Shown one piece after another: positions 36,796 to 37,549 of a stretch of 64,000 nt of DNA (its first letter is position 1; each line of letters opens with the position of its first letter). Source of the stretch: a virus. Both the position numbers and the translations under genes were made by a program. Below the pieces are notes generated by a model, which searched no databases, had not been told where the DNA came from, and saw only the letters and a list, made by a program, of their open reading frames with translations. The stretch covers positions 1 through 64,000 of the IMG/VR virus record IMGVR_UViG_3300020192_000009. One strand, 5' to 3'.

Positions 36796-37549
36796 GCCGC
36801 AAAGGCTGTGCAATGCCTTTCAAAATTGCAACAGCGCGCAGCCTTGCGTGCCAAAGGCTGTGCAATGCCTTACAAATTGCAACTGCGCGTATATCTTCAC
36901 TGCGCAACAAAGGCCGTGCAATGCCTTTCAAAATTGCAACTTCGCACGCGCAGTCTGTGCATGGCCGGTGGCAAAGGCTGTGCAATGCCTTACAAAATTG
37001 CAACCATGGGGAAAGGCCAGCGCGCGATCTGCTGTGTGACAAAGGCCGTGCAATGCCCTACAAAATTGCAACGTGCGCGTGGTGTTGACCGCGCTACCGC
37101 AGCTTATGCTGTAACAAAGGCTGTGCAATGCCTTTCAAAATTGCAACTTGGACCCGCGGGCGTGGCGCCTGCTGGGCCTGTGACAAAGGCTGCGCAATGC
37201 CTTTCAAAATTGCAACGGATCACCAGCTACCTCTACACCAACGGGTGCGCCCGTGACAAAGGCCGTGCAATGCCTTTCAAAATTGCAACGCGAACTGCGT
37301 TCGCGCCTTGGCGCCAAAGAGGATAGCGTGACAAAGGCTGTGCAATGCCTTTCAAAATTGCAACCGGCATACCACGTCGGCCGCCGCCTCCGGTTTAAGG
37401 GTGACAAAGGCCGTGCAATGCCTTTCAAAATTGCAACGCGCAAGCATAAGCTGCGCCTCTACGGTCAACACTACGTGACAAAGGCCGTGCAATGCCTTAC
37501 AAAATTGCAAGACGAACGGGCAATATCCAATGTCTTTCAAAATTGTAAC
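36796..37549 (+). CRISPR. CRISPR-like array B (11 repeats + 1 degenerate), no cas genes
   Basis: Repeats start at 36796, 36848, 36904, 36968, 37036, 37111, 37180, 37253, 37328, 37401, 37475; spacers 15, 20, 27, 31, 38, 32, 36, 38, 36, 37 nt; degenerate copy ends at 37549. Confidence 0.95.

Follow-up and report, generated by a model that had tools for sequence, protein, structure and literature searches.

The closest described relatives of the locus analyzed here are the type V-M CRISPR systems, whose effectors, the Cas12m family, bind without cutting in every characterised member and pair with 17–18 nt, the binding to DNA being PAM-dependent (PMC10442227, PMC11013384). In the Cas12m2 structure, the 36-nt scaffold, with its 5′ 7 nt disordered, is composed of a stem and a 6-bp pseudoknot, the 3′ strand of which occupies positions −8 to −3 and is followed by A(−2) and C(−1); the guide–target heteroduplex extends over only 17 bp (PMC10442227). 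GoCas12m contacts up to 18 bp and has a mature crRNA of 50–60 nt, and the non-cutting Cas12m proteins include D-E-D variants (PMC11013384). Phage-borne Cas12m is barely described in the searchable literature, and one 2026 preprint (bioRxiv 10.64898/2026.09.14.751636) calls its example the first; the myxophage MV-1 described there is without cas1, cas2, and cas4, and its eight spacers are contained in a single adjacent array, the repeats of which follow one consensus.

Here, we analyzed a 64,000-nt stretch of viral DNA (the window), taken from the start of a linear virus record of 98,503 bp with a CheckV completeness of ~88%. The original prediction concerned the recombinase-proximal end of one of its repeat arrays (array B), where spacers of 15, 20, 27, and 31 nt precede spacers of 32–38 nt, and suggested that the short ones may be regulatory or decoy guides or products of acquisition without Cas1. 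These lengths were confirmed by our parse, and the same array B layout is present, with 99.4% identity, in L006, a 57-kb contig assembled independently from another sample, so that the layout is not an assembly artefact.

Array anatomy and reading direction

The repeat is 37 nt long with the consensus GTGACAAAGGCTGTGCAATGCCTTTCAAAATTGCAAC, and the arrays were parsed by an edit-distance scan with this consensus, which found 59 copies in the virus record (edit distance ≤10). Array A (33232–33775, − strand) contains spacers of 36, 24, and 36 nt and a 263-nt insert, and is inverted relative to array B (36796–37549, + strand; spacers of 15, 20, 27, 31, 38, 32, 36, 38, 36, and 37 nt). Array C (63921–64066, − strand), which runs past the window end at 64000, contains spacers of 17 and 19 nt; the 24-nt spacer of array A and the spacer of about 19 nt in array C had been noticed before and were found as described. 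Arrays D (87006–87650, + strand, with a degenerate copy also at 87933–87968) and E (92072–93200, − strand) lie further downstream in the record, and the scan also found a lone copy at 66284–66319 (− strand) and a lone degenerate copy at 64423–64457 (+ strand).

Arrays A, B, and C stop 12–26 nt before a same-strand start codon, of the genes for a thioredoxin, a DUF6283 protein, and an RRM protein, respectively (33206–33232, 37549–37564, and 63894–63921), and two of these proteins begin with MPTK; this arrangement suggests that the three arrays are located in the 5′ untranslated regions of operons. Array A is flanked on both sides (33200–33243 and 33790–33832, − strand) by the 3′ end of the repeat and a conserved 20-nt sequence att[ga]aaaaagttacgagttc in a direct-repeat-like manner, and the copy at 33200 runs into the thioredoxin start codon. 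In array E, a 26–29-nt spacer family, comprising tgcgtttt[ct]tagggcttccctgcgaa and a longer form, occurs three times (G000 92138–92852; contig L017 is also concerned), always preceded by a repeat variant ending in AGAAATTGCAAC.

The short segment of array B (R1-S1-R2-S2-R3-S3-R4-S4-R5; 36796–37072, + strand) begins with R1 (36796–36832, + strand), followed by S1 (36833–36847; 15 nt, agcgcgcagccttgc), S2 (36884–36903; 20 nt), S3 (36941–36967; 27 nt), and S4 (37005–37035; 31 nt), all on the + strand; R2 is 36 nt long. The canonical block that follows (37073–37511, + strand) carries spacers of 38, 32, 36, 38, 36, and 37 nt with the near-consensus repeats R6–R11. After R11, which ends in G, the array closes at its trailer end (37512–37549, + strand) with 6 nt and a degenerate part-repeat (37518–37549), and the start codon of the DUF6283 gene (37562–37936) is 12 nt past this point. 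As had been read from the sequence before, the first five letters of R1–R4 are GCCGC, GTGCC, GCAAC, and GTGGC; the later repeats of array B begin with GTGAC or GTAAC.

Upstream of array B is a tyrosine recombinase gene with a CxxC-rich insert (35991–36707, + strand; Pfam PF00589, 9.5e-17; PHROG integrase). The CxxC…CxxC insert of the recombinase weakly matches the DnaJ CXXCXGXG zinc finger. The 88 nt from its stop codon to R1 (36708–36795, + strand) start with a (CAA)10 run directly after the stop codon, and neither a sigma-70 consensus site nor a terminator was found in this stretch; the GACAAT upstream of R1 may be a −10 box. The last 9 nt before R1 together with the R1 start (cgacaattt/GCCGC) are identical to the junction that precedes the repeat adjacent to the cas12m gene described below; thus, the GCCGC start of R1 represents a conserved first-repeat boundary rather than decay. 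A proposed link of the short end to the recombinase came down to adjacency, beyond which nothing pointed to an action of the recombinase on array B, and in L006 the segment between arrays A and B has the same orientation.

Some further features of the region were recorded. In contig L016, a related sequence, ~130 nt (L016:1700–1835, against 34786–35505 of the window) stand in place of a 276-codon gene at 34768–35598, with flanks that are 97–98% identical. Long in-frame tandem arrays occur in the ORFs at 25100–25770 and 45280–45650, with units of 9/18 nt (collagen-like Gly-X-Y) and 15 nt (pentapeptide-repeat). Cyanobacteria and the phages that infect them often have such Gly-X-Y and pentapeptide tandem repeats as well as RRM proteins, so that these features may be a hint to the host. 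The DNA polymerase of the virus is ~25% identical to that of the nearest phages, too little to be informative about the host.

The repeat is predicted to form a stem (AAAGGC/GCCUUU), and UGCAAU in the stem-loop can pair with AUUGCA at positions −8 to −3 to form a 6-bp pseudoknot, followed by AC; this layout, read from the sequence, is that of Cas12m2. The 50 repeat copies compared differ only in their first five letters and at the junction of the stem and linker, and the paired columns are invariant, so that there is no covariation; no Rfam family matched the repeat. The drift of the first five letters is explained by their falling in the part that is disordered in the Cas12m2 structure. In R1–R4, the 6-bp pseudoknot and the stem are retained, with an A·A outermost pair in R2 and R4, and R5 has two mismatches in the stem. 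Because the repeat layout matches the Cas12m scaffold, it fixes the + strand as the one on which array B would be read, with the short spacers at the 5′ end of the putative transcript and not in its trailer.

The opposite reading, in which the array is transcribed from the other strand and the short end is an old, decaying trailer, would agree with the fact that short spacers and variant repeats are often typical of a trailer end. It was not borne out: in the + orientation, the repeat ends in the 3′ strand of the pseudoknot and AC as in Cas12m2, with the variable letters in the disordered 5′ part; the repeats next to cas12m share both its strand and this orientation; array B has its degenerate terminal repeat at the opposite end; and every array is co-oriented with the gene after it. 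We therefore regard this reading as very improbable.

Cas12m gene and search for adaptation genes

A repeat-motif scan of metagenomes led to contigs L014 and L021, each of which has a 735-aa ORF followed, within ~30 nt, by two fused copies of the repeat. The gene (cas12m; L014:5786–7993, 735 aa) encodes a protein that matches PDB entry 23vw_A, annotated as Cas12m (E = 2.9e-54), as well as UnCas12m4a (2.2e-20) and Cas12m2 (5.4e-18), and carries a Pfam TNB domain (Cas12f1-like; PF07282, 3.7e-09). In the alignment, the motifs DLGWR, vlEkf, and WDQDfNAA constitute the RuvC D-E-D triad. The absence of cutting by this protein is a reading taken only from its orthologues, and its own D-E-D triad is retained.

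The final 70 nt of L021 are exactly nt 1–70 of the virus record, and a 274-aa ORF crosses the join without a stop codon. This 70-nt overlap between separately assembled contigs, together with the continuous ORF, would place cas12m ~6 kb to the left of the record start, in a virus of at least 107 kb. The array adjacent to cas12m (L021:355–2661 and L014:5786–8092, with the gene) consists of two repeats fused via a common GCAAC and has no spacer. The spacers of the virus are all in arrays tens of kb from cas12m.

Inside the 98.5-kb record, six-frame searches found neither Cas12m nor a TNB domain. Likewise, no cas1 or cas2 (profiles PF01867 and PF09827) was found in the ~88%-complete record, whereas control genomes responded, and a Pfam scan of five L021 ORFs and the other four L014 ORFs found no Cas domain. 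Neither a Cas12m relative nor another record with the repeat was found in IMG/VR. The large ORFs of the record (723, 733, 677, 665, 564, and 451 aa) were rejected as effector candidates, having no Cas match in Pfam, PHROGs, NCBIfam, or PADLOC; the 723- and 733-aa proteins are low-complexity coiled-coil types, and PDB sequence searches with the 451-, 564-, 665-, and 677-aa ORFs found no Cas relative. The 451-aa ORF (L002:5468–6823, corresponding to 85468–86823 of the genome) is located just upstream of array D, and a search of 1.8 billion representative proteins yielded no more than three remote relatives; as a TnpB/Cas12-like effector it was rejected, with no PDB or family match and no similarity to the Cas12m protein.

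The presence of a Cas12m gene bears on how the short spacers can be understood. It had been supposed that shortness would switch an effector from cutting to binding in an array devoid of cas genes, but the virus has its own Cas12m, and the characterised Cas12m proteins are non-cutting and pair with 17–18 nt anyway. Since Cas12m pairs only 17–18 nt, S2, S3, and S4 (20, 27, and 31 nt) have ample length for such an effector; among S1–S4, only S1 (15 nt) falls below the 17-bp duplex and would be a borderline guide.

A role of the units as decoy RNAs (RNA anti-CRISPRs), or as hijacking guides for a host Cas12-type effector that uses the same repeat, was also weighed, since there are precedents for it among the mini-arrays and solitary repeats carried by viruses (PMC11656645, PMC10120712). 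When 185,579 species (one genome each) were scanned for an exact 20-letter motif of the repeat, which a diverged host repeat would escape, the repeat was not found as an array in any of them, and the eight single matches were scattered over unrelated genomes. With the cognate effector encoded by the virus itself in addition, this role is hardly credible.

Spacer lengths and rearrangement among relatives

The four leading spacers are all shorter than every later one in 0.02% of the permutations of array B, and the same leading run of four arises in 0.035% of random draws of 10 from the 44 spacers of the genome (p ~3e-4; the test is post hoc, with the statistic picked after the pattern was seen, and assumes simple exchangeability). 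The array B pattern is statistically unusual. Split into its components, the location of four short units at one end, either end, has a chance of ~1 in 105, and their monotonic order ~1 in 12; arrays D and E show no length trend.

In the genome as a whole, short spacers and diverged repeat ends are the rule: 27 of the 44 spacers are ≤31 nt, 10 are <17 nt, and the lengths span 4–39 nt (median, 26.5 nt), while the first five letters of the repeat differ from the consensus in 27 of the 44 cases, a majority. The letters reported for the first repeats of array B are thus correct, but these repeats and the short spacers between them are not special. A connection between a variant pentamer and a short preceding spacer was rejected (Mann–Whitney p = 0.78). 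The span of 4–39 nt and the occurrence of repeated spacers (three members of the array E family; S1 twice in L006) are not the narrow and unique pattern of Cas1–Cas2; the original prediction is supported in that cas1 and cas2 were not found and that the lengths are far broader than an integrase ruler would give. Units 1–4 of array B bear variant repeats of the kind that prevails in arrays D and E, which are reshuffled, and units 5–10 resemble an untouched canonical block; the clustering of the short units at one end therefore has a simple historical reading, and the tidy length gradient looks incidental rather than designed.

Evidence for such reshuffling was obtained from the relatives of the virus. 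In L016, the flanks of the array are 98.5% identical to the window, and the leader and the GCCGC first repeat are the same; its array is composed of S3 (27 nt), S2 (20 nt), and S7 (36 nt), after which come two others (35 and 26 nt). Every letter of S2 and S3 is the same there, but their order is reversed, and S1 and S4 are absent; S4 is present in L006. In L006, S1 with the GTGCC repeat that follows it also occurs in the inverted array A, where it replaces a 36-nt spacer. Each spacer keeps the pentamer after it (S1-GTGCC, S2-GCAAC, and S3-GTGGC), and this joint movement implies that the crossovers fall in the invariant core of the repeat. The arrays rearrange faster than 1.5% point divergence accrues, and the gradient is confined to one sub-lineage. 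Conservation of the short spacers in relatives, which had been raised as a check, thus holds letter for letter (S1–S4 in L006; S2 and S3 in L016) but not for the gradient order, which is 27, 20, 36 nt in L016.

We also compared the 67 distinct spacers (out of ~100 from the genome and nine related contigs) all against all, and found five pairs of different register to be related. Three are clear truncated derivatives: a 21-nt spacer is the last 21 nt of a 39-nt spacer; the 19-nt spacer of array C has a 15-nt form in L008, in which the first 4 nt are missing; and a 26-nt spacer approximates the last 25 nt of a 29-nt spacer. The other two pairs share an offset core (S5 and a 36-nt spacer of L011, with a 22-nt core offset by 11 nt; a 34-nt and a 21-nt spacer). 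Based on the three truncated pairs, some short spacers are deletion derivatives. All three have lost the side proximal to the upstream repeat (the seed side), so that the loss would alter or destroy the guide and not merely trim a spare tail.

These truncations raise the question of whether the short units of array B are plain decay, namely dead deletion remnants of 36–38-nt spacers in arrays that are no longer renewable, with the 5′ block of array B the most eroded. The three derivatives (39 to 21, 19 to 15, and 29 to 26 nt), the spacers of 4–12 nt elsewhere in the genome, the reduction of the cas12m-adjacent array to two fused repeats without a spacer, and a length ceiling that stays at 36–39 nt are all in line with decay. 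Yet no longer relative of S1–S4 was found among the ~100 spacers of the genome and the nine related contigs; the scaffolds before S1–S4 retain the pseudoknot and stem, the spacers of 20–31 nt exceed the 17–18 nt paired by Cas12m, all arrays are co-oriented with the local genes, and the repeat cores are invariant. We consider plain decay of S1–S4 unlikely.

Possible targets were searched for in several collections. No protospacer was found in the virus itself, either in its own genome with the arrays masked or in all fetched loci, including the cas12m contigs. Exact 20-mers of S2, S3, and S4 had no match in IMG/VR, and the spacers matched isolated phages and plasmids at chance level only (all E ~3–9 and best E 0.7, respectively). 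The first 15 nt of S1–S4 matched the regions upstream of cas12m and the recombinase at 9–11 of 15 positions at best, as did shuffled spacers, so that the repression of cas promoters put forward in the original prediction found no support there.

These searches also bear on the view that S1–S4 are selected regulatory mini-guides, kept near the promoter for high dosage and used by Cas12m for silencing genes of the host or of phages that stay constant; the guide may then extend into the variable letters at the start of the next repeat, S1 and GTGCC together giving 20 nt. The identity of S1–S4 in L006 and of S2 and S3 in L016, the duplication of S1 with its GTGCC repeat into array A of L006, the constant joint movement of spacer and pentamer, the intact scaffolds of R1–R4, and the leading run (p ~3e-4) are consistent with it. 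However, because the flanks of these relatives are 98.5–99% identical, identical spacers are expected and say nothing about selection; S1 and S4 are missing from L016, in which S2 and S3 are reversed, and no target was found in the virus, the regions upstream of cas12m and the recombinase, IMG/VR (exact 20-mers of S2–S4), isolated phages, or plasmids. Selected mini-guides thus appear improbable.

Origin of the short units and comparison with known systems

Altogether, we consider it somewhat probable that array B provides guides for a phage type V-M system that lacks an adaptation module, that recombination has reshuffled and trimmed the front block of the array, and that most of its short spacers are long enough for Cas12m. 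This account is built on the observed anatomy of the arrays, the Cas12m gene and its link to the virus, the lack of cas1 and cas2, the reordered spacers of the relatives, and the truncated spacers; the transcription, guide loading, binding without cutting, and targets of array B are what we infer. Array B would belong to a set of five or more crRNA arrays in a phage of ~107 kb, which has a Cas12m gene but no genes for adaptation, and would be transcribed on the + strand, probably with or just after the recombinase gene. Each unit is assumed to comprise the 36–37-nt scaffold, with its stem, pseudoknot, and terminal AC, followed by the spacer, the first 17–18 nt of which, by analogy with Cas12m2 and GoCas12m, would pair with DNA, so that the complex blocks transcription or replication without cutting. 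The 20-, 27-, and 31-nt spacers could then serve as full guides, with the 15-nt one as borderline. The first five letters of the repeat may drift freely and travel with the upstream spacer. In the absence of a Cas1–Cas2 ruler, the arrays would change only by recombination between repeats, within or between arrays, and by deletion, giving rise to spacers of 4–39 nt, and the gradient would be the current order of a reshuffled four-unit block before a six-unit canonical block.

Several observations count against this account. The leading run of four (p ~3e-4) leaves room for some ordering process; the three truncated derivatives have lost their seed side, and the ten genome spacers of <17 nt cannot be full guides; no protospacer was found for any spacer in the searches, so that the guide role is putative; the D-E-D triad of this Cas12m is retained; and the cas12m contig is joined to the record by the 70-nt overlap of separate assemblies. 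Selected mini-guides and plain decay may both shade into the reshuffled guide array that we prefer. A bolder extension is that phage Cas12m systems have evolved a second class of guides, that is, permanent mini-guides of ~15–30 nt, for which the free 5′ letters of the following repeat count as part of the effective guide and which move between arrays as spacer-plus-pentamer cassettes and stay proximal to the promoter for graded silencing of host or rival-phage genes. If such a class exists, which we think rather far-fetched, the spacers of array B would be ordered by length as a series of doses or affinities.

The gradient alone matters little, as the spacers are in a different order in a sister strain whose flanks are 98.5% identical. 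Of wider interest is that the virus may offer a natural phage case of CRISPR without spacer acquisition, evolving only by recombination and with an effector that only binds DNA. The scaffold core appears to be constrained in the Cas12m guide unit, as perhaps are the first ~17 nt of the spacer; the tail of the spacer is free to vary, and so are the five letters with which the repeat begins. The lengths of 15, 20, 27, and 31 nt provide a ready natural series for the minimal guide length of Cas12m.

Among known systems, the virus resembles the virus-borne, cas-less mini-arrays and solitary repeat units (PMC11656645) in having CRISPR repeats in a virus without adaptation genes. These elements copy the repeat of the host, whereas no host array with the repeat of this virus was found, and the virus has its own effector. 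CreA, type I mini-arrays, and tracr-L (PMC10120712) are similar in that shortened spacers lie beside variant repeats and the effector binds its target without cutting. Unlike the virus, however, these elements are of one or two units, form part of the cas locus, and have a match in the promoter of a cas or toxin gene; the short units of the virus are within long arrays with no promoter match found upstream of cas12m and the recombinase, and their shortness is unneeded since the effector family is non-cutting.

The myxophage MV-1 (bioRxiv 10.64898/2026.09.14.751636) is closer, sharing a phage Cas12m and a CRISPR array, no cas1 or cas2, and no protospacer found; MV-1 is not reported to have dispersed arrays or spacers of irregular length, and dispersed arrays with spacers of 4–39 nt are not described in that preprint. 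The type V-M systems (MmCas12m2, GoCas12m, and MsCas12m; PMC10442227, PMC11013384) share with the virus a homologous effector, a 36–37-nt repeat that forms a stem and a 6-bp pseudoknot and ends in AC, the absence of adaptation genes at the locus, and residence on a mobile element. In contrast to the known type V-M systems, the guides of the virus are spread over five or more separate arrays, some as far as ~100 kb from a cas12m gene whose own array is spacer-less, its spacers range from 4 to 39 nt, and its effector has 735 aa (known ones, ~600 aa) and the D-E-D triad.
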